Assembly: GCA_040182905.1 (NCBI GenBank)
Contig: JARQWU010000024.1
Location: 1-64,000 of the forward strand
Length of the DNA: 64,000 nt
Direction of reading: 5' to 3'
Source: Barthelona sp. PAP020
Taxonomy: Eukaryota
The notes below the pieces were generated by a model. The model was not told the origin of the DNA. It made no database searches and saw only the letters and a program-made list of their open reading frames with translations. The translations under genes were made by a program, and so were the position numbers. Below, piece by piece: positions 30,380 to 62,952 of the stretch (position 1 is its first letter; every line of letters begins with the position of its first letter).

Positions 30380-33300
30380 TCAAAAACGATATTCTATCCA
30401 TTTTTTTAAGCCTTTAAACAATTCTTCTGGAGATAAAAACGCTAACAACCAAAAAAAAATTTTCGTAGACCAAAAATCCTTTGCCAACAAATCAAAGCTG
30501 TCTTCAAACAAAAATAGAGTATCATGACGCAATTGTTGAACAGATTCTGCGGTTAAATTGGATTTACGAATATGCAATATGAGAATACTTGAATCAGACT
30601 TTTTTTCTTGATCAAATTCCTGTTCTTCCCAAAATTGATATTTAATTTTCCAAAATTCAAGATAATAAGCCAAAAAATTGACTTGAAAAGAAGATAAAGA
30701 TGCTTTATGTATCAATACACAGTACAAAGGGATATTTATCAAACCATTTAAGGGATTTTGAAAGGAGAATTTTTGGGTTTGACTTTCTCCTTCTAGCATA
30801 AAGCTCAAATGTTGTAAAACATAATTTTCTTTTATCCACACATCTTTGGCGGCTTTATCACTTTCATAATGTGCGGGAAGAAGTGGAGAAGCATTTGGAA
30901 TTTCAAATTGTTTTTTTTTAAAAAAGAAGGAAGGTAGCTTTTTTCTGGAAATTGTTTCAGTTGTTGAGATAATGGTAAGATGAGAATCTGGAATATCAAA
31001 AGGATCTGCGGCTTCGAATAAAATATGAAAAATCACATCAACATTTAGCGAATCATTTTTTTCAATTTCGTTCAACTCAACATCAAACAAACCACCATCT
31101 ACAGTTGAGCAAATATCGATAAGTAAACTTAAAAAATGATATAAAGTATTGAAATTAAACTTCAACTGAATGTTATACGCATCCATTGTTGGAAAAAATG
31201 TCGTTAAAAAATACAAATTCATAGCTTTGAAAATATTTTCAAATAGAACACCTGAATCGATTCTGATGACATCTGAGTAGTGCCAATTTGAAAGGGTTCT
31301 CAAAGTCTCTATGAGTTCATATGCCTTTTCAACAGTGAAACGCACAAACTTCCCTTCAATTTGATTACTTTGGTTTAAAAGAGATGATTGGAGATTCATG
31401 TGTTTATTCATTTTGATAGACAACGAATCGAATATATTATAGAGAGAATTGGTCAAAAAATTGAAATTATTCTGACAATCCTCTGGTAAAACAAGCACAT
31501 ACAGAATAGTGGGGTCCAAAGGGTTCAAATAACAAACAATACTAATGTCAAATGGCAAAATATTCTGATATAAGGATGAAACATGAATTCTTGGGGGTAA
31601 ATGGTCAGTTGAAGCCTTTGAACTTATTTCTGCCAGTTTTTTTTCAATGAAAGTCTTTTTTTGTAATAGAAAAGGAATATCCAATTTTAGAATAACATCT
31701 TGTAAATCTAACCATTGATTTGAGGGAATGCTGCATTTTTCGGTGATTTTACCAGAACTGTAGAACAAATAAGGCTCTTTGTTCAAATCAATAGAAATCA
31801 ATGAACAATATCCCTGATAGAATAAAGCTTTAAAACTTTCAAACTGTCGAGTTAGAATATCATGATTCACTTGCAATTCAGAGGCAGGAATCAACATAGC
31901 ATCTAATCTTTCTATGAAATAATAGCCCGACTCTTCATCATAAAATCGCTCAACTTCAAACTCCATTTGATATGCTCCTTGACGAGTTTGAACAATTAAC
32001 GTTGTATTTTCAGGGTTTTGATTTATAGTTCCTTCCATTAAATAAGCCTCCAAACGAATCTGTGTTTCAGGCAAAAAGTTCTCAAGAAAATCCTCTAAGA
32101 TCATCTTTTCGAGTTCAGCAGACGTTCCGTTGCTATTGAACATGTTGGTTTCAACCATTCCTGAATTCGCCAAATAAGTGAACGTGTACCCATCATAGGT
32201 TTCGGAGATTCGACTTAAATCTAAGAAATTATCTATCTTATTGGGCATTCCAATAATAGGTGTACCCAATCTCATTTGGTTGGATTTGAATTGTTTCAAA
32301 GATTTTCCAATTGTTGCGATGAGATTCAGCAGGTCATGACTATCATCACCCTTTAGAGAAGAACTTTTCAACTCAATGTTCCAAAAAACAAAGAATGAGC
32401 CACGATTCTGAAAGGGAATTATTACATACCATGACCTTTCCTTATTTTCGTTTTTGCTACGTACAAATTCATGTGATTGAACGCATATAATATTGCGGTC
32501 TTGAACCAATACTTTTTGAACAGATTTTTGTTCAATAGGCACTAATTGATAGCGTTCCAAACGATCATCCATTTTAATTACAAAAGAATTTCCAAAATTA
32601 CCAATTTTTGCAACTAACACATTCATTTCATTAATGTCCTCAAAATAATAGGGACAATTATCCTCTTCTGCACCAAAATAGAAATAGTTAATCCCATTTT
32701 TGGACCAACTCGTTGTAACTTCAGTATCAACTTCAGTGACGTCACTTGAAGAGAATTCTGAAGAAATGGATCGTCTACCTTTGCGTTCACCATTATTAAC
32801 AACGCTAGAACCAGAATGGAAACAAACTTTGATCTTTTGATGAAAACCAGTGGCAAAGACATCCAAAAATAGATTTGCTAATCTTTGAACGTGATCATGT
32901 ATACTCATGTTCTCAGAAATGAAGGTTCCTAAGAATTTCACCAAATGAGCTACAAACAATTGAGAATTCTTCTTCTTTCTTCCATTTACATCAACAAAAC
33001 ACACAAAGATATTACTATTTAATTCATTTTGATAATAACGTTGAAACATATACAATTTAATTTTCTTCAATCCATTAATGTGGGAACTCAAAAGAGAAGG
33101 TGTGGTTGTCTTACCCAAAGTACTCATTGAACTAGCATTTGAATCATCCGATATATCAACTATCTCATAAAATTCTTCCCCACACATTTGAAATTCATCG
33201 ATATCTGTTGCTGTACTATTTTTGTCTGCAAATTCTTGAACAATCTTTTCGTGCTCATTTTTTCGTGAGTCCCACAACAAAGGTTTCAAAGAATTTTCAA

Positions 33301-34345
33301 TATGCTTGTAATTTTCCAAATAACTTCTCAATTCGACGTCATAAATTGCATAAGATACTCCAGTTTTGGTTAATACTTCATAAATCATTGGATCAAACAT
33401 ATCTAAAGGTTTTAGAGTATTTCTTAAAAAAATAAAACCATGAAAAATCAAGCTTACACATACAACAAGTATAGTTATCAATATTGCTAGAATTAAATCA
33501 ACATTTTGCTGTAAGGTTGTGTTTGGATCAACTAAAGGACCAAATGTTTTCAATAAAGTCAACAGAGTTTCTATATCTTCAGAAGTAGAGATAAATTGTA
33601 ATGTGGATGAATAACTAAACATTAAATGTTCCTTCAGATCTCTGTTAGCAACTATTTCTTCATTTGCGAGCATCAACAGTGGACTTACACCAAAAGCTGT
33701 TGAATGACGAGTGGAAAATTCAAACTCATGATAAACTGAATACTCACCAATTGAATCAAAAAAAAGGCAATATTGTAACGAATTAACCAACAAATAATCA
33801 CATGCCAACCCTTTGGCAAAATGATCGATAGAATTCTCAATAGTTTGAAAATATAACACATTCTTAAATCTAGCAGAAGATGTAGAATTCAATAACGTAT
33901 CTAAATAAGTATAAACAAAATGAGATTCAATACAATAGCATAAAATACTTTCTTCAATACTCTTTGATTCTTGATATAATAATACAGGTGTTATCATCGA
34001 AATTTTATCCACATTTGTTGAACAATGACCAAAAGATTGATTGTAATTGATCATCAAATACTTATTATATGCAAAAGCTTCATTATTTAAATAATACATT
34101 AACTCTAATGGAGTGCCTATAATAATATTCTTCCCAGTAACAAGGGTTTGATTTGTAATATCAATATATTCACAAGAAAATGTTGTTTCTTCATCAAAAG
34201 TATTAAATATATTTGAAAATGTGTCAATGTTAATGTCTCTATACTCGTAATTATTAGATATCAAAATATCATATTCCTTTGTTAAAATTACACTCAATAA
34301 AATGGTAAATATAACATTATGTAATTTTAATTTAATAAAATTCAT
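30380..34345 (-). CDS. Single-pass membrane receptor-like protein with degenerate histidine-kinase/receiver-like C-terminus
   Basis: N-terminal signal peptide; one TM (LILAILITILVVCVSLIFHGFIF); C-terminal LYHFLSLLIDIC....GGLFDV, KFSFQNPL and CVLIH...FLAYYLEFW. Confidence 0.45.
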   Translation of the reverse strand: MNFIKLKLHNVIFTILLSVILTKEYDILISNNYEYRDINIDTFSNIFNTFDEETTFSCEYIDITNQTLVTGKNIIIGTPLELMYYLNNEAFAYNKYLMINYNQSFGHCSTNVDKISMITPVLLYQESKSIEESILCYCIESHFVYTYLDTLLNSTSSARFKNVLYFQTIENSIDHFAKGLACDYLLVNSLQYCLFFDSIGEYSVYHEFEFSTRHSTAFGVSPLLMLANEEIVANRDLKEHLMFSYSSTLQFISTSEDIETLLTLLKTFGPLVDPNTTLQQNVDLILAILITILVVCVSLIFHGFIFLRNTLKPLDMFDPMIYEVLTKTGVSYAIYDVELRSYLENYKHIENSLKPLLWDSRKNEHEKIVQEFADKNSTATDIDEFQMCGEEFYEIVDISDDSNASSMSTLGKTTTPSLLSSHINGLKKIKLYMFQRYYQNELNSNIFVCFVDVNGRKKKNSQLFVAHLVKFLGTFISENMSIHDHVQRLANLFLDVFATGFHQKIKVCFHSGSSVVNNGERKGRRSISSEFSSSDVTEVDTEVTTSWSKNGINYFYFGAEEDNCPYYFEDINEMNVLVAKIGNFGNSFVIKMDDRLERYQLVPIEQKSVQKVLVQDRNIICVQSHEFVRSKNENKERSWYVIIPFQNRGSFFVFWNIELKSSSLKGDDSHDLLNLIATIGKSLKQFKSNQMRLGTPIIGMPNKIDNFLDLSRISETYDGYTFTYLANSGMVETNMFNSNGTSAELEKMILEDFLENFLPETQIRLEAYLMEGTINQNPENTTLIVQTRQGAYQMEFEVERFYDEESGYYFIERLDAMLIPASELQVNHDILTRQFESFKALFYQGYCSLISIDLNKEPYLFYSSGKITEKCSIPSNQWLDLQDVILKLDIPFLLQKKTFIEKKLAEISSKASTDHLPPRIHVSSLYQNILPFDISIVCYLNPLDPTILYVLVLPEDCQNNFNFLTNSLYNIFDSLSIKMNKHMNLQSSLLNQSNQIEGKFVRFTVEKAYELIETLRTLSNWHYSDVIRIDSGVLFENIFKAMNLYFLTTFFPTMDAYNIQLKFNFNTLYHFLSLLIDICSTVDGGLFDVELNEIEKNDSLNVDVIFHILFEAADPFDIPDSHLTIISTTETISRKKLPSFFFKKKQFEIPNASPLLPAHYESDKAAKDVWIKENYVLQHLSFMLEGESQTQKFSFQNPLNGLINIPLYCVLIHKASLSSFQVNFLAYYLEFWKIKYQFWEEQEFDQEKKSDSSILILHIRKSNLTAESVQQLRHDTLFLFEDSFDLLAKDFWSTKIFFWLLAFLSPEELFKGLKKWIEYRF

Positions 34346-37681: not shown

Positions 37682-38698
37682 TTATATTTTTACCCAAATT
37701 GCATCCACCTCATCAGTGCGATATCTTTGTGTAACAGTAATATCAGAAACGGTTTCACATTTAATATCCTTTTCAAACATCAATAATCCATTATAAGCAA
37801 TCATTGCTCCATTATCAATACAAAAACGATCATCCATTGTTCCAATGGTAATACCTCGATCTTCAGCCATTAAACTCATCATTTCTTGAAGTCTTAAATT
37901 GCATCCTACACCTCCTACAATCAAGACACTGTCTGCATTAATATGTGAAATAGCTCTCTCAGTAACCTCAATTAACATTGCAAACATGGTCTCCTGCATT
38001 GACATGCATAAATCTTCCCTTGTTATTTCTCCATTTCTGTATTCTTTTGAATCAATATATGTTTGTGCTGTTGCTAGTTGACCTCCAAACGCCAGATCCA
38101 TACCCTTTACCGAATATGGAAATTTCAAAAAACGTTTTCCATTCTTTGCCAATTGTTCAATATTATAACCAGGTGTTGGATCATTGGAAATATCAACAAT
38201 ACGAGCAAATTTATCCAAAGTATTTCCAATTGCAACGTCAATAGTCTCCCCAAAAATCCTGTATCTTCCATTTGCAAAGCTAATCACTTGTGTATTTCCT
38301 CCAGAAACATACAAACAGACAGGATTTTTAACTAAAGTACATAATTTCCCCATTTCCACATGAGCAATGCAATGATTAACAGGAATTGCAGGAATATTCC
38401 AAAGTTGGGATAACATCCGAACAACAACTGCTGTAACATGCAAACAACTACCCATACCTGGTCCTTTGGTGTAGGCAATGGCATCTAGTTGTTCTGGTGT
38501 TACCTTTGCTTCTTTCATGGATTGTTCTAAAATAGTAAAAATATAATTTCGATGGTGTAAAGCAGTATCTATTGGAATAAAACCATGTCCTTTAGGTGGA
38601 ATATAAGTTTTTCGAACATTGGACAAAATATTACCTTTTTCATCAACAATTCCTATTCCAATTTTGTTTGCACTACTTTCAAATCCAATTACTAACAT
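37682..38698 (-). CDS. KAE1: tRNA N6-threonylcarbamoyltransferase Kae1/OSGEP
   Basis: GFESSANKIGIG, YTKGPGMG, VNHCIAHVEMG, LYVSGGNTQ, IDNGAMIA, TQRYRTDEV. Confidence 0.97.
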   Translation of the reverse strand: MLVIGFESSANKIGIGIVDEKGNILSNVRKTYIPPKGHGFIPIDTALHHRNYIFTILEQSMKEAKVTPEQLDAIAYTKGPGMGSCLHVTAVVVRMLSQLWNIPAIPVNHCIAHVEMGKLCTLVKNPVCLYVSGGNTQVISFANGRYRIFGETIDVAIGNTLDKFARIVDISNDPTPGYNIEQLAKNGKRFLKFPYSVKGMDLAFGGQLATAQTYIDSKEYRNGEITREDLCMSMQETMFAMLIEVTERAISHINADSVLIVGGVGCNLRLQEMMSLMAEDRGITIGTMDDRFCIDNGAMIAYNGLLMFEKDIKCETVSDITVTQRYRTDEVDAIWVKI

Positions 38699-38745
38699 AT
38701 CAAGTAAAAAAAATGAAAAATTTCGATCCAATACTTTTGTTTTTT

Positions 38746-40362
38746 ATGAAATTTGTTGCATTGGTTAGTGGAGGAAAAGATAGTCTATTTGCAATATTTA
38801 AAGCAATTGAAGCTGGAAATGAATTAGTTTGTTTGGCGAATATTCATCCAGAAGAAGATATTGATGAATTGGACAGCTGGATGTATCAATCAGTTGGTTG
38901 GAATTGTATTGATTATATTGCAGAAGCTCTAGATTGTCCTTTATATACCATTACAACCAAAGGAAAAGCCATATGTGGACACAATGAATATGTACCTAAA
39001 AGTGGTGATGAAATTGAAGATATGTATGAGTTAATAAAAGTTTGTTTGTTAAATCATCCTGAAATCAATTCTGTATGCGCAGGACCCGTTATATCACATT
39101 ATCAACGATTGAGGGTTGAAAATATTGCAGCTAGATTAAATTTGGTACCTTTAGCTTATTTATGGGAATATGATCAGACCAAATTGTTGGAGGAAATGTT
39201 TGAGACTGGTCATGAAAGCTTATTGATAAAATTAGGATCTGCTGGATTTAAAAGCAGGCATTTAGGACAAACATTATCTCAATCTTTTCCTTTATTAAAA
39301 AAATTGCAAAAGCAATGGGGAATGCAAATATCCGGTGAAGGTGGTGAATATGAAACACTGTGCATACAAAGTCCTTTGTTCAACAAATATTTACATTTGA
39401 AAGCCTATGAAACAATAGTAACAGCTGAGGATGACTTGACTTGTACTGCATTCATGAAAATTACAGATTGTGGATTGGAATCCCATTCAAATGAAGTTTT
39501 GTGTTCAAAGAACGATAGCTTACACATAGGGGTTAATCATAACCTTTATGTTAATAACAGTGTTCTTGAAGGATTTAAACTCTGTGAAAATTGTTCTAAA
39601 AACCGAATTGAATTGGATATTGAACAGTGTGAGGATAAACTAGCAGTCATGATTCCCATTTTTTTGCCTTGTGAAAAATGCAAAGTCAAGTGTCTCAAAT
39701 TTTTAAATTCTGTCTTTGGTGATGTTGACTTTGATAATGATGCGATTGGATTATTTTGCGGTCTATTGACATTTAGAAATTCCACGTTGGAAACTCCAAT
39801 GTTTTCTAAGTTCATTCTGCCCAATTTAACACAATTTTCAAAATTAAATCTAGTCTACAACCTTTTCTTTCCAACTCAACCTCCTGCAAGAGCTTGTGTT
39901 GGTATTTCCAATAAAGATAAAAAAGAAATTTCTTTAAAACTGATCATTTCTCCCCATAAAAGAAGAGTGTTACATGTCCAGTCTATATCACATTGGGCAC
40001 CAGCATGTATTGGCCCCTATGCTCAATCAAACTACACTGATGATTTTGCAATTATTTCCGGTCAAATTGGTCTTGTTCCTGGAACAATGACCTTGGCTTC
40101 TTCAATTGAACAACAAATATCTCAAGCATTTGAAAACGTAAAAGCAGTCATGAAAAGCATAAATGTTGATGAGACTCAACTTATTCTTCTTAACATATAT
40201 TATACTGAAGATGAAGTCTTTCAATTGATCAGTAATAGGTTTGATCATCTCAATCCAAACTTTATTAAAGTAAATCAACTGCCTATCAATGCCAAAGTTG
40301 AAATTGAAACTTGGTTTTCGAAAGAAAGTTTAAATGAAAAATTAGTCAATCTATTCAAATAA
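38746..40362 (+). CDS. DPH6: Diphthine-ammonia ligase Dph6 with C-terminal RidA/YjgF domains
   Basis: MKFVALVSGGKDS, ELDSWMYQSVG, YQRLRVE, GEGGEYET, LHVQSISHWAPACIGPYAQ, ISGQIGL. Confidence 0.95.
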   Translation: MKFVALVSGGKDSLFAIFKAIEAGNELVCLANIHPEEDIDELDSWMYQSVGWNCIDYIAEALDCPLYTITTKGKAICGHNEYVPKSGDEIEDMYELIKVCLLNHPEINSVCAGPVISHYQRLRVENIAARLNLVPLAYLWEYDQTKLLEEMFETGHESLLIKLGSAGFKSRHLGQTLSQSFPLLKKLQKQWGMQISGEGGEYETLCIQSPLFNKYLHLKAYETIVTAEDDLTCTAFMKITDCGLESHSNEVLCSKNDSLHIGVNHNLYVNNSVLEGFKLCENCSKNRIELDIEQCEDKLAVMIPIFLPCEKCKVKCLKFLNSVFGDVDFDNDAIGLFCGLLTFRNSTLETPMFSKFILPNLTQFSKLNLVYNLFFPTQPPARACVGISNKDKKEISLKLIISPHKRRVLHVQSISHWAPACIGPYAQSNYTDDFAIISGQIGLVPGTMTLASSIEQQISQAFENVKAVMKSINVDETQLILLNIYYTEDEVFQLISNRFDHLNPNFIKVNQLPINAKVEIETWFSKESLNEKLVNLFK

Positions 40363-43504: not shown

Positions 43505-46500
43505 TCAGTCACTTACTTTAGCGACCAATTTTTGTTCCAATCTGGCTAACCCTTCACTTGGTTCTTGAGCTTTGAATCCAATATGAATTTTAGTTGACCT
43601 TGAATCCTTTCCTTCATATTGAGAAGAATTTTGAATATCCACTCCCAAAGAATAACTTTCCTCTCCCTCTTTTGTTTTTTGATATCTACCACTAGATAGG
43701 GCCATTTGCAAATCCAATTCAACTTCATCAACAACCAAATTCTTGTTTGATACCATTGACATCAAAGGAACATTGATTTGACGATTCTCAAGACTAAAAT
43801 CATCAGTATCTGCATTTCTATTTGCTTGATCAACACTTAAAGATACTTGTTTTGGTCTGTAAGCAACAACATCGGTTAATTCCCACTTTTCTAATTGTTC
43901 TTCTGACATTCTATCCATCAAAGAAATCATTCTTTCCAAATTAGACAGCTGAGCTGACCGTTGACTATCCAATACTGATTGATAGATAGCTGTCAACATA
44001 CCATCAAAAGCAGAAATTGGTTGAATTTGTTCGATTGAATCAGATTCAACAACAACATCTTTTTTATTGGCATTTGTGAAAGAATCAAGCATATTATCCA
44101 CACTATTTTGGACATTATCAACATCAAATTCATTTTTCTTCTCTTTAACTTCTTCTTCCTTCTTTTCAAGAACATCTTTGTTAATTTTTTCAATAAAACT
44201 AATTGTTACACCATAAAGATTATTATTGAAAGAATTGGATATTGCCACAATCCATGAGAGAATATACATCAATAATACAATATAAAAATATGCTCTACTG
44301 ATAGTTTGGAAATTTTCTCCATATTGTTCTGAAGTTAAATAAATAGATGAAGGGTTTAAATAAGTATCTTGAGATTTGACCAAAAACAACGTCCCAACAA
44401 ATTCACTAATGAAGGTTATAGTCATGGTTATAACGTAAGCTGTTTTATCAGTTAAGACGATACCTAATATGAATGAAACAATGTACAACAAAGTGGCAAT
44501 ACCTCTAATTATTGTACCAAAAGACATATAGAGTCCTAAATCCATGTTCAAAAAGAAAGAAGTAAACACAAAAGGCAGTAAGCCCGTAAATCCTTTGATG
44601 AACAAAAAGAAGACAGAAGCAAAGGATTGAGATTGTTTTATAGAATGAATAGTGTTTACCAAATGAGGTTGGTCAAAATATGATATTCCAAACAAAATCT
44701 TATATGTCGAATTCATCAATTCATAATCCTGATCATGTTTCCTTGCTTTAAAATTATCAAAATTACTTTCATTTTCAAGATCTGGTGATAAACAATTATA
44801 TGAAGGAACAAAGAAAATCAAGGCAACGGCTTGAATGATCAAATATATTAACTGAAGAATATTATCAATCTTGTAATAACGGACATCGCTCAAACATTGA
44901 GCATCTCCCGAATCCAAAGAACTTAAAGATAACAGGAGGGTAATCATAACCAAGAAGAAAGTCAAAATAAAAGCAGATCTGAACAGTAATACTCTTTGTT
45001 CTTTATTCAATATCGCCTTTTCCCATTCTTTATCCAAAAATTTAACAGTAGTTCGTTGTTCCTCAAATATATATTTTTGTTTCTCAAAATCACGAATCAA
45101 TGTGGAGAGACATAAATCCCTCGAATATTTATCCAAAATATTACAATTCCAAGTGTCAACTAAATACTTTTCATATTCTTTCAAAGTTTCCAAATCATTA
45201 TCTTCGTATATGATTTTATGACTGGCTTTATCTTCAGCACTGTACAAAACTTGGTTTGTCCTTTCAATACTGACCCAATGTCTAACTTTATCCAACTTTT
45301 GTCCATATATATTACTAATTCTATAATCAGCAACAGTATGTCTAACGCTAGAATTCAATTCTTCCACAAAAAGCTTTTCTCCTAACATATGCAAATTAGT
45401 CTCGGGACATTTATACATGAAAATTAAATCATGCTCAGATAAATTGAATGAAGGGTCTTTTTTCTTTGCTTTGATCAAATCTTTTTGGAATTCCTTCGTT
45501 TTTAAAAGATCTTGTAAGGCCTTTTCATAATACTTTTTGAACTCTGGTGACATTTCTTCATATGATAGCAATTTATCAGCAAATTCTCTCATACTCTTCA
45601 AATCTTGTTGATATATATTGTCATCACTGTATGTTCTTTCATATCCTTGGAAGATTTCACCCAAAATAACCTTTAATATTTCATTTTTATTATAAATATT
45701 GATTTGTGAAACTATTCCTTCCTCATACTTTCCAATTAACTCATTTAATTCGTGAGTTTCATTGTGAATCGATTCAATCTGCCCATATTCATAAAATCTG
45801 AGTATCATGCGCAGATAACGCTCTAATTCATTAACTTCATTGAATCTATTTCCTAATTGACTTAAAAGGTCATCAAGTTCAAATATGTTTTCATTCGCTG
45901 AATCTAAATTTTCAGATTTCAAATGCAACAATCCTTGATGTTTTAAATACTTGCTGAACGTGTCATAAAACATATCCATGTATTCTATTCTATTTAATAA
46001 TGTGAAAGAATGGTCACTTTTCAATAATGAAAAGAATTCAAGATAATTTCTCAAACTTCTGAGCATCAAAGGACACTTGGCAAAATAAGTGTTAAATATT
46101 TTATTCTTATCATACAAACGGAAAAAGAAATCTCGCAAATTTTCTTTTTCTTCATCGTTCATTTCTTCAGTCATTCTCATCAATTCAATTCTAACACAAC
46201 CATTCTCATCCAATCCATCAGGAATCAAATATCTATCAGCCAAGTGCAACACGTTATCTATTGTAATAAGTGCATCCAACTTTCCTTGATAGTGAAACAA
46301 CAAATCAGTGAACATATGAGATAATACATTACCCAAGTAAGTATCTTCATCGTTATCAACAGAACCAATATTATCTATCAATCTGGAACGAATCAATTGC
46401 AGTTCAGCAAGAGAGAGTTCTTCCATATCTGCTAAACATGATTTGATTTCATCCAACACATCAATTTTGAAATGATTCACAGAATTTAAATCTCCTTTTT

Positions 46501-48607
46501 TCGTTTGAGACATTTTGGTGATAAATTCCTCAATAGTCAAATCTGTTCCATCATTTGTAACATACAAACTAACAATGTCCTTGACTAATTGAATGGGGGA
46601 ATCAATAGCCATCTTTTCTTTGATAAATTGCTGAATTTCAACATTATATCCTTCTGTATATAACAACAAATACATATCATCAACAAAATCACTGATGAAT
46701 TCTGTTCTTTTAACATTGTCCTTCATAAATCTGACATCTTCATAGAAAAATAAACATTCATGCAATAAATCAAAGATATGAATTTCAACTTCATCATTCA
46801 TAATGTCCAACATGTTGCTCTTAATGTTATTATACAAATCATCAACACATTTAAACTTCATGCGATCGTCTGTTCCGTCTGCACTAACATTAAAGAAAAA
46901 ATAGTGCAAAATGTGCTTAACCAAGAATTCAGTAAACAGTTGTTTTTGCTCATTCACTTGTTTTGACAAAGCAGAAGGAAAATGCAACAAATTCAAATTC
47001 TGATGATTCAAATCTTGGAATTTTTCTTGATAATACATGAATTTATGGAAAATTTTACTGAATATCTCATTCATACGCTGTTTTTCAAGGGAAATTTGTC
47101 GTTCTGCAAGAACACCTTCTCTATATATAGTTTCAACATATCTGTAACTGGATATATAAGGAATTGTACCTAAAAGTCCAAACAACGCTCCAGACACTTG
47201 TAAAAACAACCTGATCATGTTAAACATGGTAATGGGACATGATGAATTAACTCCAAAGAAGTCAAAAATTGCAACAAATAAAATTAAAAAATTAACAATT
47301 ATCAACAGATAAGATTGATAATGGCTATCCTTTATTTGACACCTGAATGGAACAACGTGATTTTCACTAAATGTTGAGTGCAATTCTAACAATAACTCTT
47401 GTAATTCTGAACTTGAAAAAACAGAAAAACCAAAAAGGTTGTTAACACTGATTGGTGGAATTTTATAAGGAGTATCTGCCTTACAATATACCAATTGAGC
47501 GATAAACTCTTCATCAGATCTAAATTTAGACTTAGTTTCAAACTTTTTGGCACCTGGATAATTATACAATCCAACAACAACAATAGCGTCAATAGAATTT
47601 TCTTCATCACCATTTATATCATTAGCAGTATAACCAATCAATCTTGACTTAATACCAGATCTCAAATAATTGATAAAACCAATCATGAAAACAAAAAGCA
47701 GGAAAAAAGTGAACACAGTGAAAAACCAGCTTGAGTTAAGGCTACTTAAAGAAAAATCTGTTGCTTTATCATAAATATCAAACCCATTTTTGGCACAAGT
47801 GAGAACCAAAAAGAAAAATGCAGTGAATAATGAATATTTAAATATTTTGACGTGTAAAATCAGATCGTAGTACGACTTTAATATCAGACAATCAGGAGGT
47901 GATAAAACAGAATTAGTTTGAAACTTGTTCTTCAAACATTGCCTGTAATTAGGCCTTCTATTGGCAACAGGTACAGGATTTAAATCATCTGTGCTTGTTT
48001 CTTCCTCACTTTGAGATATATTACTGTCATTGTCCCCTCTTTCTTGTTTAAAATAATCAGTATCTTTATTTTGGGCAACATCATCAAACTCTACAGGTAA
48101 AACATCCATAGGTTCCGATGGTAGAATACCAAAGAGTGAAACAGCCATACCTAAAAATAAACAGAATAAATATCCAAGAAAAAATATATGAGAATAACCT
48201 AAATCAGAAAAATTGACAAGATATTGTTCTATTTGTGTCATACATACAAATAAACTTAAGACAAAAACGATTAACATAAATCCAGGTGACTTTTTCAATC
48301 TTTCACGTTTATCACTAATATTAAAAACATCACTTTCATCATCTCCACATATATATCCAAAATTTAGATCTTTTCTCAACTTAAACGAATATTTTAACTT
48401 AAATCCATCCGAAATAGCCGCTTTAGTCATTTCGGATTCCTCAAATTTTTTCCTTTTTTTAAAATATGAACTAACATATTCATCAAAGTCCAATTCTTTT
48501 TTCATAGTCGCAACACTTTGGTTTTTGAGTGATGATTGGGCAGTTTGCATCATAATACTTTGTTGCCGAAACATACCTTGTCTCTGCTCCGATTCAGGAG
48601 AAGACAT
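43505..48607 (-). CDS. Polytopic membrane protein with C-terminal DUF2589-like domain
   Basis: Two clusters of hydrophobic helices flank a ~700-aa helical region. The last ~170 aa read FDGMLTAIYQSVLDSQ...VPLMSMV...L.VDEVELDLQM...KIHIGFKAQEPSEGLARL. Confidence 0.75.
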   Translation of the reverse strand: MSSPESEQRQGMFRQQSIMMQTAQSSLKNQSVATMKKELDFDEYVSSYFKKRKKFEESEMTKAAISDGFKLKYSFKLRKDLNFGYICGDDESDVFNISDKRERLKKSPGFMLIVFVLSLFVCMTQIEQYLVNFSDLGYSHIFFLGYLFCLFLGMAVSLFGILPSEPMDVLPVEFDDVAQNKDTDYFKQERGDNDSNISQSEEETSTDDLNPVPVANRRPNYRQCLKNKFQTNSVLSPPDCLILKSYYDLILHVKIFKYSLFTAFFFLVLTCAKNGFDIYDKATDFSLSSLNSSWFFTVFTFFLLFVFMIGFINYLRSGIKSRLIGYTANDINGDEENSIDAIVVVGLYNYPGAKKFETKSKFRSDEEFIAQLVYCKADTPYKIPPISVNNLFGFSVFSSSELQELLLELHSTFSENHVVPFRCQIKDSHYQSYLLIIVNFLILFVAIFDFFGVNSSCPITMFNMIRLFLQVSGALFGLLGTIPYISSYRYVETIYREGVLAERQISLEKQRMNEIFSKIFHKFMYYQEKFQDLNHQNLNLLHFPSALSKQVNEQKQLFTEFLVKHILHYFFFNVSADGTDDRMKFKCVDDLYNNIKSNMLDIMNDEVEIHIFDLLHECLFFYEDVRFMKDNVKRTEFISDFVDDMYLLLYTEGYNVEIQQFIKEKMAIDSPIQLVKDIVSLYVTNDGTDLTIEEFITKMSQTKKGDLNSVNHFKIDVLDEIKSCLADMEELSLAELQLIRSRLIDNIGSVDNDEDTYLGNVLSHMFTDLLFHYQGKLDALITIDNVLHLADRYLIPDGLDENGCVRIELMRMTEEMNDEEKENLRDFFFRLYDKNKIFNTYFAKCPLMLRSLRNYLEFFSLLKSDHSFTLLNRIEYMDMFYDTFSKYLKHQGLLHLKSENLDSANENIFELDDLLSQLGNRFNEVNELERYLRMILRFYEYGQIESIHNETHELNELIGKYEEGIVSQINIYNKNEILKVILGEIFQGYERTYSDDNIYQQDLKSMREFADKLLSYEEMSPEFKKYYEKALQDLLKTKEFQKDLIKAKKKDPSFNLSEHDLIFMYKCPETNLHMLGEKLFVEELNSSVRHTVADYRISNIYGQKLDKVRHWVSIERTNQVLYSAEDKASHKIIYEDNDLETLKEYEKYLVDTWNCNILDKYSRDLCLSTLIRDFEKQKYIFEEQRTTVKFLDKEWEKAILNKEQRVLLFRSAFILTFFLVMITLLLSLSSLDSGDAQCLSDVRYYKIDNILQLIYLIIQAVALIFFVPSYNCLSPDLENESNFDNFKARKHDQDYELMNSTYKILFGISYFDQPHLVNTIHSIKQSQSFASVFFLFIKGFTGLLPFVFTSFFLNMDLGLYMSFGTIIRGIATLLYIVSFILGIVLTDKTAYVITMTITFISEFVGTLFLVKSQDTYLNPSSIYLTSEQYGENFQTISRAYFYIVLLMYILSWIVAISNSFNNNLYGVTISFIEKINKDVLEKKEEEVKEKKNEFDVDNVQNSVDNMLDSFTNANKKDVVVESDSIEQIQPISAFDGMLTAIYQSVLDSQRSAQLSNLERMISLMDRMSEEQLEKWELTDVVAYRPKQVSLSVDQANRNADTDDFSLENRQINVPLMSMVSNKNLVVDEVELDLQMALSSGRYQKTKEGEESYSLGVDIQNSSQYEGKDSRSTKIHIGFKAQEPSEGLARLEQKLVAKVSD

Positions 48608-55107: not shown

Positions 55108-58100
55108 TTATCTTTTGTTCAAAGCTTTGAGTTTATCCAAGAAACCTTTTGCTTTTGATTTTTGATCAAAATCTCTTCTTTGTTGGATAATTTTAATCTC
55201 TTTGATCAAATTATTAAAGAACATATTTTTTGAACTGTTGTCATTCAAATGATGAATGTCAAAACTGTCAATGTCATCCAATATTTCTTTTAATTCAAAC
55301 GACACTAAAATCCATTTATTTTGCTGAGGTGAAATAATTATTGGTGGATCTTTTTGAGGATCAAATAATCTGATAAATTTATCCAAAACCTCAGAATTGA
55401 CCTTATTGCAAATGTTTGAAAGAGGGTATTTTTTCATCAAATTTACAGAAGAAATTCCAAGACCTTTTAAAGTTAAATCTAAATACTTTAACATAGGATG
55501 AGTTCCATTGAATAAATACTCTTGTAATACTGAATCAATAAGATTATTTGAGGTATTTTTGTATTCTTTATTTTTTTGTGATTGTATATCAATAGATTCA
55601 TTAAAATTGTTTGAATTAATAATGTTATTTCTTTGAATAATGTTTTGAGTTTGATTTGGAATGTACAAAATGTAATTATCTTGTTGTGTTAAACCGTTAC
55701 TTTCTCTTAATGTTTGACACAATATTGAGTCTGAATCAAGCAGATAAGATAAAATTGCTGAAGCCCAAACATAATTTTCAATAAGAATATTATCTTCATA
55801 AGGTGATTCATTAAAAATAATCCTTTTTTGAATTGTTTTCAATTTATTTTCTGTAAAAATTCCATCAATATCATTAGCTTCCATTAATAATGATTCTTTT
55901 ACAGCTAATTCCTTTGATTTTTGAATATTTTCTAACTCTTGCAAAATCATTTGACCAACAGAATCAAAAATTTGTCGATTTTTCATCTCATCTTTCAAAT
56001 CAAAAGGTAAAGCTTCTAAAATGGGTTTCAATGATTTAGGCTTGTTTGAATATTCAAAATTTTTCGTTTCAATTGCATCATAATAACTATTAATTTCACA
56101 GAAGTTGGAATCTTCATTCCTCGTCTTTTTATTTGACAATATTGTTTGACATTTGTTTTTAATATTTGGTGAAAAAGATATTGGCAATAAATCTTTTCTT
56201 TTTGAACTTATTGTTTCAGAAAAGGGTTCAGGTGATTCAACAGGAGAAGATAATCTACTATCATGATTTGTAAAAGTCATTTCATTGAAAATTTCATCAT
56301 TCTGGGTGACAAAAAACATTTCATGCTGCAAAAATTCTCTTGTTGAATTACTTTCATGTTCTTCATTTCTTTGATTTTTAGAATTTGCTAACTTGATTTG
56401 ACTTCCAATCACATTTATTTTAGGATCGTAATGCTTTGGAAGGTTTACAACAGGAAAACTTTCAATTTTTTCTTTAAAAATAGAATTTCTTTCTTCAAAA
56501 TCATCATATTTTGATGATAATGGTGTTGATTGCAACTGAAAGCTTAATTTTTCATTCATAATTTTTCTTTCATCTTTTTTTGTCTTATATTGATTTCCTG
56601 TCAATTCAAATTCGGCACCCATTGAATTATTTCGTTTATGAGTTGATTTCATTTCAACACGTTCATTTTTTACAATCTTAGGTGTTTTGGAACTTGAAAC
56701 TACTTTGTCATTTGCTGGACTTAAATTTTTATGGCTAACGCTGTTTGCACTATTTAATCTAGAACGAAATGGTGTTGACATTGGTTTATTTTGAATTACA
56801 AATTCATTTGAAATTGAATTTGAAGTAATTTTGTTGCTAATTAGTGAAGGTATTGAATTGGAAGTGGAACATATTGATAAAGAGCTTGTAGGACGCTTTC
56901 TGGCTGTTTTAACAGTTTCAATTTCACTTTGTTCAAAATCTTCATTATCATCATTATTTATTAAAAAATCGCCATTTATTCTCATAAAATTGTTGTTTTG
57001 ATCATATCTTTCATGTACCCTGTCCTTTAATAGGGTACTTTGCGTACCTTTAGCATATTTTCTACTGATTCTAATTGGACCTTTATTTTTTGTCAATTCA
57101 ATTCTTTTTTTAACTTCATCATCAGTAGCAGTTTCCAAAGCAATTTCTAAACGTTTCCTTTCTTCATTTAAAATGTGCAAATGAATATCAGTAAATGAAG
57201 GTTTTCTATCGATTTCATTTTTTTCAAAAACAAATAAATGTACGGGATTTTTAGCTCTCTTTTTTAATTCATGATCATCCATGACAGCCAATATATCAAA
57301 AGCTTGATCTAAAGGTAAAGAATCTTTTGAAATTGTTTTATTTAACAATCTCTTTCTTTTTTCAATTTCTTTTTCCAATTCTTTTGAATATTCATCAGTA
57401 AATGATGAGATATTTGCTAATCCTTCCCTCATTTTCCTCTTCTTTTCATTTCGCCTTTCCGCTTCTTCTTTAGCTATTCTCTTTCTTTCAAATAATTTTC
57501 CAAATTCTTGTGGTCCAAAACTCTTTGAAGCCAATAATTTTTTTTCTATATTTGGAAAATTTTGAAACTTTTCATTTGATTTTTGATGTGTATCAGGAAT
57601 TTCAGTTTCAGTATCTATCAAACGTAATGGCATTTCTAATTTCTTGTACCAATCAATTAAGTCACGTCTTCGTTCATCAGATCTTTTCAATCCACCAATA
57701 TCATATGGAATCATTGAAGGTCTGCGCTTACTTTCATATTTTTTGAGAGTTTCTTCATCTAACTTAGATTTGAAATAATTTTGAGTATTTAAATCAAATT
57801 CTACGGAAAAAGGCAAATCAATGCGAAAGATTTCTACACCATCAAAATCAATTAAACCATATGGTACGTTGTGACGAAATAAATAATCGAAAACTTTTGT
57901 AATCTTCTTGCGATATTCTGTAATATTAACGCTTTTGTTCATTTCATTGTCCACTTTAATTTGATTATCTTTTTCATAATCTTGATCTTTCCTCAACATA
58001 ATCCTTACTAAAGTCAAGTACAAACGAACAATTTTATCAACACTCTCTTTACTTGGTTTGTATAATATTCTTTCCTTTTTTATTTGTATTTCTTGTGGGA

Positions 58101-61100
58101 TGTTATTCTTTTTGATCACTTCAAGACTACGACTTTGTGGTATAATGATATTTAATGAAGATTTTGCACTTTGGTTCTCTTCTTCTTTCACCCTACCTTT
58201 TGATTTTTTAATGACTGCATTTTTTTCATTAATATTAAGATTTAATGTTGCATTTTTGTCCTTTAAAACATTTACACTATCTCGCCTTTTTTGATCAATA
58301 GTTTCAATTTGTATTTTTGTTATCATCTCAAAAGAATCAACAAAATCATCATCATCCACAGGATTTTCATTCGGTAATGTTAATTTTGCCATTCTTTTGT
58401 CTTCATCACTAACATAACCTGTAATATCTATTGATTGAGATGATAAAAATCCAGTTTCAACATCATTTGTCACAGTAACAGGTACCACCTCCGTATTTTC
58501 AAGTTCTCTCATCATGGTAGCATTTTTTTCCTCATCAGAATCCAATGAATCTTCTTTTATCTCAGAAGAGAACATATCTTTGGCATTTAATTTATTTGTT
58601 TGAACAGCATCAATACCATAAGGTGATGACTGGTTTAGAACAGTATCAGGTAAACTTTCAATGTCAATAGATGTGTCTACAATTGATTGACTTGTCAAAA
58701 TTTCAGAATCATTCAAAGAATTGACATTTTTATTGCTTAAAAATGAATTATCAGTTAACTTCGATGAATCTGCTTCTTTAACCTCATGTTGTTCCATTCT
58801 ATCATTTTCTGGATGGTAATCTGAATTTATTCGTCTATTTACATCATTTTTGCTATCAACAAACGTATTTGAAGTTTCAAAATTATCAACAACTGGAGAA
58901 ACTAGCTCTGAAGTATTATATTCATTTTCAGCATTTTCATAAATAACATCAAATGAAAACTCAGTTATATCAATGTTTGCAGGAGGAAACTGACTAGATT
59001 TCCTTAGTTCTTCAATATCAATGGTAATATCAAAGTCATCTCCACCATCATCTCTAATTTTGACGTTGGCTACTTCTTCCATCAAATCATCAATGATTGG
59101 TTCAACAACACCTTCAAATATTTGAGGTTCATAATTGTATATTTCATCAGAAACCGCAATGGATTTTCTTCGATATTTCATTTTTTGGATATAATTTAGT
59201 TCAACAGAGCTACTATTGGAAGTTGTGCTTCGATGTGAAGGAATAATACCATTGGGTATTTCACTGGGGAGATCAACAAGATTATCATAATCAATTGTGT
59301 CATTTTCATCATCCACTTCAATAACACTTTGAAAATTTGAATTTTCATTGTTTTGAAATGTTTTTGAATTTGATCTTTTCTTATTAACATCTTTTTTAGG
59401 TGATTTGTAATTCATTTGTTTAATTTTTCTGGCAGACTTTAAACCTGGTCTTTTTGAACGTAAATATCTAACATCTTCATCTTTTTTCTTTCCTTTCTTT
59501 TTTCGAGGTTTATTTTTAATCAATTCTACCTGTTTTTTCTTTTCTTTTAGCTCTTCTAATTCTTTTGTTTTTCTAGCAAGATCAATATCTTTTTTAATTT
59601 TTTCTAGTTCTTTATCCCTTCTTTGCTTTGCTTCAATTTCTCGATAATTCATGAAATTATCATTCTTTTTAACAAAAGAACCATATAAATCATCGTCTTT
59701 TGTTTCCAAAGTCAATTCAACGATACTCTTCCTTCTTTTAGCTTTTTTATCAATCTGTTGCACCCTTTGTTGAACAATCAAATTAGCAATCTTCTTTTCA
59801 ACATATATAAAAGTTTCTTCAAGTGTTTCATTCACAACGTTCAAAAACACAGAATCTACCAATCTTTTAATTTCGTTCTCCATTCTGTGTTGTTTCATTT
59901 CTTCTTCTTCTCTCAATTTCATTTCCATTTCAAGTACATATTTATCGTGATTTTCTCGTTTTTGACTCCATAATTCTGCTTCTTCCATCATTACCATCTC
60001 TTCACCTTCCATTCTTTCAATCATTAATTTTTGTTCTTCTTTTAAATACTGTTGATTTTCGAATTCAATTTGCTTTTCAATGAGTTTTTTTCGGTATTCA
60101 TAAGCAAACTGAAAAATAGCATCCTCAATAACAACACCAATTATCTCTTCTGTAACCTTATCTATAGAAGTAGAGATCGTTTTATTCCTAACTCTTTGAA
60201 ATAATGAAAACTTTTCATCATCACTCAATTCAAACATTTTTCTTCTAATTTCTTCTTCTTCTTCCTTTTGTTTCTTTTCCATTTCTTTTTGTTGTTCCTG
60301 TTGTTCTTTTTCTTCTTCTTCCGCAAGTTTATCTTCTTCTTTCTTTATTCTAAATAATTCTTTCTTTTCATTTTCTTTCATTTTCTTCAACAGTCGTAAA
60401 TTATTTTCCTTCTTTAACATGATTTCTTTTTCTCTAATCAATTTAAGTTGTTCTTCTTCAAATTTCTTTTGAAATAACAATTGTTTCTCATGATTTTCTC
60501 TCTTTTTAGAAAATTCTTCAGCCTTTTCCATTTCAAGACGCTCCATTTCTTCCTGTTTTCTCATTTTAGCTAAATGTTTTGCTTCTGCATCCTTCAATAA
60601 TTTTGATACATGTGTACTAGTTGTTCGAAAGTCACTCAAAGAAACATTAAATTTTTTCACAAAATCTTTATTTTCTGTTAATTCTGTTGTTGTTAAAACA
60701 TTTTCAATACCAATTGCATTATTTTCATCTTTTATAATACATATATTTTCATCTTTAATAACATCTTGAACAATGTTAACATTGATTTCAGGCTGTTCAA
60801 CTGTGTAATCCTTGTCAAAAATGTTAATATTATTTGTCAATGTGTTATCACTCTTTGAACGATTATGAAATTTTGAATTGATTAAATTATTATTTGAATT
60901 CATTCCATCAATTTCAAATAATTCATGTTCAGCAAAAGAAGGTAAAGAAAAATTTGCATTTAATTGATTTAATTTTCTTGCTTGAGCAACTGTAATTACT
61001 TTTACTAATTTTTCTTTGTTTGAATTGATATATTTAGCAATAAATTCCTCATTTGCTAAACAAACATTCTTAAAAATTCCATTTATTGTGTTATTTTTTA

Positions 61101-62952
61101 ATAAAGATGCATTCTTTTCTCTAGTAATTTCAAGAAATTGTTGTCTTCTTAAATTCATTGTGATATCATTGTTAATATCTCTTAAATCTTGTTTTTTAAA
61201 ATTGTCAGACAATTTTTGATCAATTCTTTCAGCAAATAAATTACCACGTTGTACATATCTCAAATGAAAATAGATAACAAATCGAAAATTATGTTCCAAA
61301 TTAAATTCTCTTTTAAATTCTTCCAATTGATTTTCATTTAAACGTTTACATTGTCTTAAAGGTTGAGAAAAAGGGATATCATAATTAATGTATTTAATTA
61401 AACTTTCAGAAGCTCTTTTATGTTTCCAAGAAATTAAAATATTCTTCAAAAACATTTTCTTTTCTTGAAAATAATAACTTTTAAATGATCTAATTTTCAT
61501 TGTATATTTTTTTAATAATTTAAAAGGTTTATAAAGATAATCACCAACAGGAAACTCATTGGTAGATTTAGGGAAAATCAAACTGACAATTATGGTCATC
61601 AATAAACGTTGTTTATAATTGTTCTCACTATTTATTGAAATTAATTTCCATTTTAACAATTCATTATGATCATTTTTCATCTGTTTTAACATTGTGAATG
61701 CTTTTTTAGCATAAATTTTATTGGTATGAAAATCTAATCGCATTTTGATAAATTTTAATTTTTTGTTCAATATATAAGTGTTATGCCAGTTCTTTAAACA
61801 TTCTAAATATTGTTTATGTTGATATTCTTCAATATTAAATTTTGAAATAAACAAATAATAATATTTCCGAAGAAATTTGGTACGTAAAAATGTGTTTAAT
61901 TTTATTGTATTTTCTTTGTCAATTATTTTTCTCCGAAAAATGTAATACCAACTATCAAAACATCCTCTTAATGGCCAACGATATCTGATGATATAATTTA
62001 AGCTCTTATTAAATTCATTATGTCTTTTGATGCTGTTCAAATAATTATCCCATTCAATAATAGGTTTCCAAGATGTTGGAGGTAACTCTCCTTTTAATGA
62101 ACTACGATTAAATATCATCATACGATACCACATTGTCAAAGATAATTGAACAGTTTTTCTAAATTCACAATATCTTTTGTATTTTGCTTCTTTTATTAAA
62201 TTAGCCATGTGTTTTGAATATGCTAACCAAGATCTAAAATTATCATAACATTCTGTTTTAAAGTTCTTTTCTTTAAGATAATTGGTTAATTTTATATATT
62301 TATGTTGCATTACCCAATGATTGAAAAATGTTTTTACCTTACTGGAAAATGAACATCGTTTATAATATGTGTAAGCTCTCCATTCTCTCAAATATCTTAT
62401 ACATTGTTCACCATCTGTTCTAATGACAATAATTGGATTATTTATTTCTTCATAAAGTTTTCTTTTTTCATCATAAATATCATTCTCAATGGGTAATTCT
62501 TCCATGTTTACTAATTTGGTTAAAGGCGTTTCTTGCTTCTTTTTTAGTTTAGAAACATTGCGTGAGAAAGTGTTTAAAACATGTGAAGGCGTTAAACTCA
62601 ATGATACATCATCATGTAAATTTTTTGTTGAACCAAAACTTGTGGAAGGAGGTGTTAATTCAATGGAATAATTAGGAATCGGTTTGTAATCAAATGGTTC
62701 AACATTTGTTAATTGAATATTATTATATTCGACTGAAGGAATTTCTCGTTTGGGAGTTTCAATAAATTTTTCATTAATTTTTGGTTTATTGTATTTAATT
62801 TTCTTCACTTTTTGTTTCAATTCTTGTTTATCGGTTACATCTTTATTCTCTTTGGTTTGAAAAGTTACAGTAATTGATGGATAAGGTAGAATGTCTTTTT
62901 CATAATTCTGCTTTTTATTTGGGGTTTTTAATGTACGTAAAGGTGTATTCAT
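55108..62952 (-). CDS. Very large coiled-coil protein with N-terminal Sfi1-like Trp repeats
   Basis: Periodic F..W motifs (KTFFNHW, DNFRSW, RGCFDSW, ECLKNW, NILISW) in a basic helix, then K/E coiled coil and low-complexity sequence. Confidence 0.55.
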   Translation of the reverse strand: MNTPLRTLKTPNKKQNYEKDILPYPSITVTFQTKENKDVTDKQELKQKVKKIKYNKPKINEKFIETPKREIPSVEYNNIQLTNVEPFDYKPIPNYSIELTPPSTSFGSTKNLHDDVSLSLTPSHVLNTFSRNVSKLKKKQETPLTKLVNMEELPIENDIYDEKRKLYEEINNPIIVIRTDGEQCIRYLREWRAYTYYKRCSFSSKVKTFFNHWVMQHKYIKLTNYLKEKNFKTECYDNFRSWLAYSKHMANLIKEAKYKRYCEFRKTVQLSLTMWYRMMIFNRSSLKGELPPTSWKPIIEWDNYLNSIKRHNEFNKSLNYIIRYRWPLRGCFDSWYYIFRRKIIDKENTIKLNTFLRTKFLRKYYYLFISKFNIEEYQHKQYLECLKNWHNTYILNKKLKFIKMRLDFHTNKIYAKKAFTMLKQMKNDHNELLKWKLISINSENNYKQRLLMTIIVSLIFPKSTNEFPVGDYLYKPFKLLKKYTMKIRSFKSYYFQEKKMFLKNILISWKHKRASESLIKYINYDIPFSQPLRQCKRLNENQLEEFKREFNLEHNFRFVIYFHLRYVQRGNLFAERIDQKLSDNFKKQDLRDINNDITMNLRRQQFLEITREKNASLLKNNTINGIFKNVCLANEEFIAKYINSNKEKLVKVITVAQARKLNQLNANFSLPSFAEHELFEIDGMNSNNNLINSKFHNRSKSDNTLTNNINIFDKDYTVEQPEINVNIVQDVIKDENICIIKDENNAIGIENVLTTTELTENKDFVKKFNVSLSDFRTTSTHVSKLLKDAEAKHLAKMRKQEEMERLEMEKAEEFSKKRENHEKQLLFQKKFEEEQLKLIREKEIMLKKENNLRLLKKMKENEKKELFRIKKEEDKLAEEEEKEQQEQQKEMEKKQKEEEEEIRRKMFELSDDEKFSLFQRVRNKTISTSIDKVTEEIIGVVIEDAIFQFAYEYRKKLIEKQIEFENQQYLKEEQKLMIERMEGEEMVMMEEAELWSQKRENHDKYVLEMEMKLREEEEMKQHRMENEIKRLVDSVFLNVVNETLEETFIYVEKKIANLIVQQRVQQIDKKAKRRKSIVELTLETKDDDLYGSFVKKNDNFMNYREIEAKQRRDKELEKIKKDIDLARKTKELEELKEKKKQVELIKNKPRKKKGKKKDEDVRYLRSKRPGLKSARKIKQMNYKSPKKDVNKKRSNSKTFQNNENSNFQSVIEVDDENDTIDYDNLVDLPSEIPNGIIPSHRSTTSNSSSVELNYIQKMKYRRKSIAVSDEIYNYEPQIFEGVVEPIIDDLMEEVANVKIRDDGGDDFDITIDIEELRKSSQFPPANIDITEFSFDVIYENAENEYNTSELVSPVVDNFETSNTFVDSKNDVNRRINSDYHPENDRMEQHEVKEADSSKLTDNSFLSNKNVNSLNDSEILTSQSIVDTSIDIESLPDTVLNQSSPYGIDAVQTNKLNAKDMFSSEIKEDSLDSDEEKNATMMRELENTEVVPVTVTNDVETGFLSSQSIDITGYVSDEDKRMAKLTLPNENPVDDDDFVDSFEMITKIQIETIDQKRRDSVNVLKDKNATLNLNINEKNAVIKKSKGRVKEEENQSAKSSLNIIIPQSRSLEVIKKNNIPQEIQIKKERILYKPSKESVDKIVRLYLTLVRIMLRKDQDYEKDNQIKVDNEMNKSVNITEYRKKITKVFDYLFRHNVPYGLIDFDGVEIFRIDLPFSVEFDLNTQNYFKSKLDEETLKKYESKRRPSMIPYDIGGLKRSDERRRDLIDWYKKLEMPLRLIDTETEIPDTHQKSNEKFQNFPNIEKKLLASKSFGPQEFGKLFERKRIAKEEAERRNEKKRKMREGLANISSFTDEYSKELEKEIEKRKRLLNKTISKDSLPLDQAFDILAVMDDHELKKRAKNPVHLFVFEKNEIDRKPSFTDIHLHILNEERKRLEIALETATDDEVKKRIELTKNKGPIRISRKYAKGTQSTLLKDRVHERYDQNNNFMRINGDFLINNDDNEDFEQSEIETVKTARKRPTSSLSICSTSNSIPSLISNKITSNSISNEFVIQNKPMSTPFRSRLNSANSVSHKNLSPANDKVVSSSKTPKIVKNERVEMKSTHKRNNSMGAEFELTGNQYKTKKDERKIMNEKLSFQLQSTPLSSKYDDFEERNSIFKEKIESFPVVNLPKHYDPKINVIGSQIKLANSKNQRNEEHESNSTREFLQHEMFFVTQNDEIFNEMTFTNHDSRLSSPVESPEPFSETISSKRKDLLPISFSPNIKNKCQTILSNKKTRNEDSNFCEINSYYDAIETKNFEYSNKPKSLKPILEALPFDLKDEMKNRQIFDSVGQMILQELENIQKSKELAVKESLLMEANDIDGIFTENKLKTIQKRIIFNESPYEDNILIENYVWASAILSYLLDSDSILCQTLRESNGLTQQDNYILYIPNQTQNIIQRNNIINSNNFNESIDIQSQKNKEYKNTSNNLIDSVLQEYLFNGTHPMLKYLDLTLKGLGISSVNLMKKYPLSNICNKVNSEVLDKFIRLFDPQKDPPIIISPQQNKWILVSFELKEILDDIDSFDIHHLNDNSSKNMFFNNLIKEIKIIQQRRDFDQKSKAKGFLDKLKALNKR

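Follow-up and report, generated by a model that had tools for sequence, protein, structure and literature searches.

In the flagellate Barthelona sp. PAP020, a DUF2589 domain forms the C-terminal 10% of a 1700-residue protein (P0001) with 12 predicted transmembrane (TM) helices, rather than the short soluble protein in which this domain usually occurs, and the evidence supports this fusion as genuine and as transcribed in one frame. A soluble DUF2589 protein (P0004) is encoded nearby, and the reading favoured here, to which a probability of roughly 0.4 is given, is that the P0001 tail would lie in the cytosol and dock P0004 onto the membrane. Barthelona is a deep-branching, anaerobic, bacterivorous flagellate that belongs to a little-studied metamonad lineage.

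The window (the whole stretch of DNA that was analysed, 64,000 nucleotides of contig JARQWU010000024.1) has a G+C content of about 30% and carries long, densely packed open reading frames (ORFs). The families that Pfam recognises in them are eukaryotic: HECT ligase, UFC1, Ras/Rab GTPase, V-ATPase subunit E, papain-type protease, protein kinase, glycogen phosphorylase and WD40 proteins. A six-frame scan of the window found DUF2589 in P0001 and P0004 only. The features on which the argument depends are the following; the U and D types are defined below.

43505..48607, minus strand: whole P0001 ORF, 1700 codons from ATG plus a TGA stop
48287..48607, minus strand: N-terminal soluble region (residues 1-107), without a hydrophobic segment; K+R 20%, net charge +4
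47162..48286, minus strand: TM cluster 1 (residues 108-482), six helices predicted by hydropathy scan; loops 93 and 122 residues long
44972..47161, minus strand: central soluble insert (residues 483-1212), likely helical, acidic and low in proline and glycine, no family match
44237..44971, minus strand: TM cluster 2 (residues 1213-1457), predicted to have six helices; its final four are conserved in the paralogue P0009
44018..44236, minus strand: charged, acidic, predicted helical linker (residues 1458-1530); D+E 23%, K+R 13%
43508..44017, minus strand: DUF2589 domain, probably U-like (residues 1531-1700); Pfam 41.7 bits, U profile 69.9 bits versus D profile 36.0 bits
29572..30138, minus strand: P0004, soluble DUF2589 protein scoring as D type, the proposed partner; 188 aa, Pfam 76.5 bits

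Reading frame and transcript support

The frame of P0001 is free of stops across all 1700 codons, with a divergent gene beginning 50 bp upstream of it and a convergent phosphorylase gene terminating 95 bp downstream. The original prediction had described an ORF that runs without a break through an acidic linker into a DUF2589-like tail, and had proposed that transcripts be inspected for two separate genes. A single 1700-aa frame was found, and the junction with the tail is covered by transcript-derived (Trinity) ORFs. The sole full-length relative of P0001 found by a word-based search of an index of 5.8 billion proteins is one of these, a Trinity ORF of 1694 aa (P0002), whose 90% cluster also contains a 1700-aa Trinity isoform (P0008); both are named in EukProt as Barthelona sp. 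PAP020. P0008 departs from P0001 at three residues (967, 977 and 1129) over 1700 aa, and P0002 shares those three differences, its others being confined to residues 1-259. Assemblies derived from RNA of PAP020 or of a very close strain therefore read the full P0001 frame, tail junction included, though an internal start may be used in addition. The GC content at third codon positions (GC3) of the P0001 tail, 0.24, is like that of the neighbouring genes (0.18-0.26), so that the DUF2589 domain is neither a recent import nor a contaminant.

Membrane clusters, insert and predicted topology

The TM helices were predicted with a 19-residue Kyte-Doolittle scan, a crude method, which identified hydrophobic segments at residues 108-126, 141-159, 253-271, 294-312, 435-453 and 464-482 (cluster 1) and at 1213-1231, 1250-1268, 1329-1347, 1366-1384, 1392-1410 and 1439-1457 (cluster 2). 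The expectation of roughly a dozen hydrophobic segments, in two clusters on either side of a soluble region of about 700 residues, is thus borne out: there are 12, arranged 6 + 6 around a 730-residue stretch. That stretch, the insert, contains 1.0% proline and 2.6% glycine, is rich in leucine, glutamate, lysine and aspartate, and carries a net charge of -39. It had been called helical at the outset; its composition fits a helical soluble domain and makes that description likely, short of proof, the structural modelling otherwise being of low confidence.

Downstream of the twelfth helix, D+E amounts to 23% within residues 1461-1530. A model of residues 1204-1700, built from a 12-row alignment (pLDDT 50.1) and used for secondary structure only, contains the helices of TM cluster 2 and renders the linker, at low pLDDT, as helices continuing from the twelfth TM helix. 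Lysine and arginine residues adjoining the helix ends number 18 in the even loops of P0001 and 6 in the odd loops; by the positive-inside rule this bias places the N-terminus, the insert and the tail on the cytosolic side, a topology that is predicted from a crude hydropathy scan and that rule.

The original prediction had also proposed that the TM hairpins are internally repeated modules. The five peptide strings quoted in its support are all present (P0001 residues 151-164, 468-484, 1257-1270, 247-261 and 1295-1311), but local alignment scores between the proposed modules do not rise above shuffled controls, and the idea of a repeat was not upheld. Alignment of TM cluster 1 with TM cluster 2 gives a score of 44, against a shuffle mean of 44.6, and 144 of 300 shuffles score as high or higher; among the 15 pairs that can be drawn from the six hairpins, the best has a z of 2.74, and since 6 of 200 shuffles attain its score it falls short of significance once 15 tests are allowed for. 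BLASTP of P0001 against the window's ORFs returned no second self-match at E <= 1, and a search of the insert for an internal repeat in 120-residue windows had a top score of 49, against a 99th percentile of 50 in the null distribution. The likenesses among the hairpins are those of any hydrophobic helices.

A diverged paralogue with the same fusion

A phmmer search with residues 501-1700 against 1.84 billion representative proteins (E <= 0.001) returned two proteins: P0002, which is P0001's own transcript, and P0009 (E 8.6e-11), a 703-aa Trinity ORF from the same organism (EukProt Barthelona sp. PAP020). P0009 aligns with P0001 by BLASTP (E 1e-23, 24% identity) over residues 1330-1691, which take in the linker and tail as well as the last four TM helices, and itself contains a DUF2589 match of 33.8 bits, above the 23-bit cut-off. 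The two proteins thus have in common the last four TM helices, a charged linker and a probably U-like DUF2589 tail; they differ in that P0009 has about eight predicted helices (2 + 6) and an insert of about 110 residues, whereas P0001 has 6 + 6 and an insert of about 730. That the membrane-linker-DUF2589 arrangement is kept in two diverged paralogues points to selection acting on the fusion and speaks against an artefact of gene modelling.

Family and fold searches

The match of P0001 to DUF2589 (PF11655) spans residues 1544-1695 (41.7 bits, E 2e-10; gathering cut-off 23 bits). By these sequence comparisons the domain is a member of PF11655, and the whole protein falls in no described family: the remainder of P0001 has no match in Pfam (E <= 1), NCBIfam, PADLOC, the sequences of the PDB or the ESM Atlas (queried with residues 1-1470 and 486-1210). 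The fusion had been put forward as one that was not recognised, with a match to a TM family already described with this tail as a finding that would speak against it, and that assessment holds across these five collections. Against Tetraspanin (PF00335, cut-off 32.1 bits), P0009 reaches only 18 bits (E 0.0024) and P0001 has no match at E <= 1. PHROGs, for which the tail and P0004 were the only queries, returned nothing; the P0001 tail alone found no match in the word-based protein search; and no kinship was seen with the neighbouring 1321-aa ORF upstream of P0004 (best E 1.8).

The same fusion, which the original prediction had proposed to look for in related protists, was not found in other protists in the 5.8-billion-protein index, the 1.84 billion representatives or metagenome contigs. 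In these contig scans, an alignment of P0001 with P0009 marked 592 metagenome stretches, none of which was confirmed, and the U-like alignment marked 107 pattern stretches in genome contigs, again with none confirmed.

A model of the tail, based on a 149-row alignment (pLDDT 69.6, pTM 0.52), has, besides a long helix and a C-terminal one, four long strands and a disordered loop (model residues 120-148). Foldseek comparison with the PDB gave no match at E <= 0.001 among 83 (best E 1.8), and a wide VIA-align search gave a best Z of 3.9, over the first long helix only. Against BFVD there were likewise none at E <= 0.001, the best being a 178-aa viral protein (E 9.1e-3). Since the tail model has no match among solved structures, its fold offers no functional lead.

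Bacterial DUF2589 pairs and the typing of the protist proteins

A profile of the three protist DUF2589 domains found nine DUF2589 proteins of prokaryotes or metagenomes; among those that carry a name, the best comes from a Sphaerochaetaceae metagenome-assembled genome. An alignment of those proteins was then used to retrieve 70 bacterial loci (L001-L070), whose gene order was established by ORF and HMM analysis, and the types U (upstream) and D (downstream) were defined by gene position. The order is UD at 41 of the 70 loci, UDD at 20, D only at 8 (at least 2 of them cut by contig ends) and DD at 1, so that 61 of 70 carry a co-oriented pair of U followed by D. The gap between first and second gene has a median of 21 bp and is 60 bp or less in 49 of the 61. 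A downstream gene of about 91 aa is common to 28 loci. Pfam matches in the seven bacterial neighbours scanned were an AraC HTH domain, DUF261, a further DUF2589 domain or nothing, and no bacterial neighbour gene resembles the non-tail part of P0001.

Profiles for the two types were built from the first (U) and second (D) genes of the 42 two-gene bacterial loci, with no protist sequences included. The P0001 tail scores 69.9 bits with U and 36.0 with D, the P0009 tail 40.6 and 21.7, and P0004 56.2 and 99.2. A quick maximum-likelihood tree of 74 rows was drawn from every second locus with two or more matches, leaving out single-hit loci, L005, L067 and ORFs longer than 300 aa. One branch of this tree parts the first from the later genes (SH-aLRT 100); the P0001 and P0009 tails are sisters (99) on long branches, inside a group of 29 first genes and P0016 (100), and P0004 lies on the opposite side, adjoining later genes of Sphaerochaeta and Bacteroides. 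An AU test did not reject a tree that joins the tails to the D genes (p 0.438, log-likelihood difference 1.67), a single-sequence phmmer search with the P0001 tail brings up proteins of both types, and only four alignment columns discriminate between the types; at these the tails agree with U in 2 and 3 cases and with D in 0. Taken from bacterial-only profiles and the tree, a U-like identity for both tails is probable, not certain, and P0004 scores as D type. This typing of tail and P0004 lends indirect support to the idea, already raised in the original prediction, that the P0001 tail may have a soluble partner.

In a 59-row U alignment, P95 and R170 (P0001-tail numbering) are invariant and E166 is nearly so; the 149-row alignment likewise shows no variation at P95. 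A membrane anchor was seen in none of the 62 bacterial U-type proteins that were examined. D-type proteins have a conserved hydrophobic hairpin, and in 11 of 42 bacterial D proteins it was counted as a hydrophobic segment.

The stand-alone DUF2589 protein

P0004, whose exact sequence is contained in EukProt, has neither a hydrophobic N-terminus nor a signal peptide, and matches the P0001 tail by BLASTP (E 2e-6). Its gene shares a strand with that of P0001 and is separated from it by 13.4 kb, in which six ORFs of at least 100 aa are found; P0001 is not immediately upstream of a D-type gene, as bacterial U genes are. PMC11316075 puts the draft genome of an organism so named at 13.2 Mbp, with 30.5% GC, and by simple arithmetic with that genome size, assuming three DUF2589 genes, a pair would fall this close in about 0.6% of random placements. 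Under the same assumption of three genes, this proximity, being unlikely by chance, hints at a common local origin of P0001 and P0004, for example in a transferred U-D operon that was later separated.

A proposed model for docking at the membrane, and its alternatives

The favoured reading can be laid out as a series of steps. Bacterial gene transfer would have brought a DUF2589 module into the lineage, and its U half would have become fused to membrane scaffolds in two paralogues, P0001 and P0009, so as to present a U-like domain at the cytosolic face on a flexible charged stalk. The tail would then bind the soluble, D-type P0004, by analogy with adjacent, co-oriented bacterial genes, whose products often bind one another, and P0001 may thereby fix or nucleate a U-D assembly at the membrane. 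The bacterial U proteins examined being free of anchors, the membrane link would be an innovation of this lineage. Observations that run counter to docking include the lack of any precedent among the 62 bacterial U-type proteins for a role at membranes, and the position of the gene of the partner, P0004, which is not adjacent to that of P0001. The wider proposition, that a flagellate captured a bacterial two-protein DUF2589 module and twice welded its U half to polytopic scaffolds that template assembly of the D half, is offered tentatively and is less likely than not to hold.

An unlikely alternative makes P0001 an autonomous channel, transporter or receptor, with the tail as a self-association or regulatory domain and P0004 uninvolved. 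Its 6 + 6 helices and two large soluble parts resemble transporters and membrane cyclases in topology, and the fact that P0009 keeps the tail along with the last four helices suggests that the tail works with the membrane part; set against this are the searches above, in which no family of transporters, channels or receptors was matched, the two halves that are not detectably duplicated, and the retention by the organism of a separate D-type protein, of a kind that accompanies U in 61 of 70 bacterial loci. It is more doubtful still that the protein is a domesticated bacterial or phage device that damages the membranes of prey, with its tail facing the lumen of the food vacuole. The hydrophobic hairpin of the D type, scored as a hydrophobic segment in about a quarter of the bacterial D proteins, would suit such a role, but P0004 lacks a signal peptide, the positive-inside count places the tail in the cytosol, and a lysin-like gene stands beside none of the seven bacterial neighbours scanned; nor is there a lysin family among the 24 neighbours in the window, which do include a papain-family cysteine protease (25548-26555).

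The notion that the fusion is an artefact, whether two genes read as one or a chance DUF2589 match in a fast-evolving orphan, has been largely refuted and now seems very improbable. Isoform P0002 shows that variants were merged by Trinity, which is the one point in its favour; the stop-free frame, the transcript ORFs that span it, the same fusion in the independent paralogue P0009, Pfam scores above the cut-off in both proteins and the presence in the tail of the family's conserved proline, glutamate (nearly invariant) and arginine all argue against it.

If the proposed capture of a bacterial module and its twofold fusion to membrane scaffolds is correct, it would represent the first eukaryotic and the first membrane-anchored form of a DUF2589 system, and a natural 'fusion clue' that the DUF2589 pairs of prokaryotes and phages are membrane-proximal, heteromeric assemblies. 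A eukaryote that has both halves, one of them fused twice to membrane proteins, suggests a hypothesis for the whole family, namely that the halves bind each other and act at the membrane. It would also be a further instance in which genes of bacterial origin became part of new membrane architectures in eukaryotes.

Comparison with known systems

Membrane adenylyl cyclases and full-length ABC transporters are pseudo-dimeric proteins of the form 6TM-soluble-6TM-soluble. P0001 is like them in topology only, in that a large soluble part comes after each of its two six-helix clusters, both parts being predicted to lie on one side of the membrane. It is unlike them in having no cyclase, ATPase or nucleotide-binding domain (Pfam E <= 1) and no detectable similarity between its halves; membership in these 6TM + 6TM families was accordingly rejected, the catalytic domains being absent and the halves not duplicated.

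Bacteria, archaea and phages widely carry DUF2589 pairs. In the full text of main articles, 'DUF2589' appears in two papers only, among passing expression hits, and 'PF11655' nowhere, with no function described. The P0001 tail resembles PF11655 proteins in its N-terminal helix with a conserved glutamine, its 'VP...' strand and its C-terminal 'P-x-E-G/A-x-x-R' helix. Like the bacteria that carry the pair (for example Sphaerochaetaceae, Treponema, Pseudomonas and Cystobacter), PAP020 has a U-like and a D-like member. The bacterial DUF2589 proteins sampled are mostly of 145-270 aa (up to 378) and soluble, with their genes side by side, whereas in PAP020 the U-like domain forms the end of eukaryotic polytopic membrane proteins of 1700 aa and 703 aa.

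Transcript and paralogue of the membrane protein

Two Trinity transcript ORFs correspond to P0001, the 1700-residue window protein that joins twelve predicted transmembrane helices to a C-terminal DUF2589 tail. The first of these, P0002, differs from P0001 at 56 alignment columns, all of which lie inside residues 1-259 (window positions 48607-47830); past residue 259 the two differ by only three changed residues, and the same three are altered in the second transcript ORF, P0008. The divergence at the 5' end of P0002 suggests that it comes from a second allele or from a paralogue of recent origin whose 5' part has diverged, or that the transcript was assembled as a chimera.

A 703-residue paralogue of P0001 from the same organism, P0009, which is encoded outside the window, displays a weak match to Tetraspanin across residues 340-483 (18 bits, below the cut-off of 32.1), spanning its last four transmembrane helices. 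No such match was found in P0001.

Other reading frames in the window

Five further reading frames are considered here:

18398-23992, minus strand, giant ORF of 1864 aa, no Pfam or NCBIfam family
30380-34345, minus strand, ORF of 1321 aa, no Pfam or NCBIfam family
37682-38731, minus strand, Kae1/TsaD-like ORF
38596-40362, plus strand, diphthamide-synthase/L-PSP ORF, called from GTG
55108-62952, minus strand, giant ORF of 2614 aa, no Pfam or NCBIfam family

As listed, the Kae1/TsaD-like and diphthamide-synthase/L-PSP frames overlap by 136 bp on opposite strands. Because the latter was called from a GTG codon, its real start is probably an ATG further downstream; TTG starts were used for several more ORFs in the same list. 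The 1321-residue ORF, which displays a hydrophobic N-terminus and a single central hydrophobic helix, has no similarity to P0001 and lies directly upstream, on the same strand, of the gene for P0004, the soluble DUF2589 protein.

Comparison with bacterial loci

Among the 70 bacterial DUF2589 loci (L001-L070), the pair formed by an upstream-type (U) and a downstream-type (D) gene is followed in 28, mostly proteobacterial and all within L029-L070, by a conserved gene of approximately 91 codons that belongs to no Pfam family. An AraC-type regulator lies upstream of the pair in 12 loci, from Pseudomonas and some other proteobacteria, and a DUF261 gene lies downstream in some Treponema loci. Spirochaete loci (L001, L002, L003, L007, L010, L022 and others) harbor three DUF2589 genes in the order U-D-D, with a longer U protein of about 200-330 aa, and the nearest neighbours of P0004 in the tree are the third genes of such loci in Sphaerochaeta.
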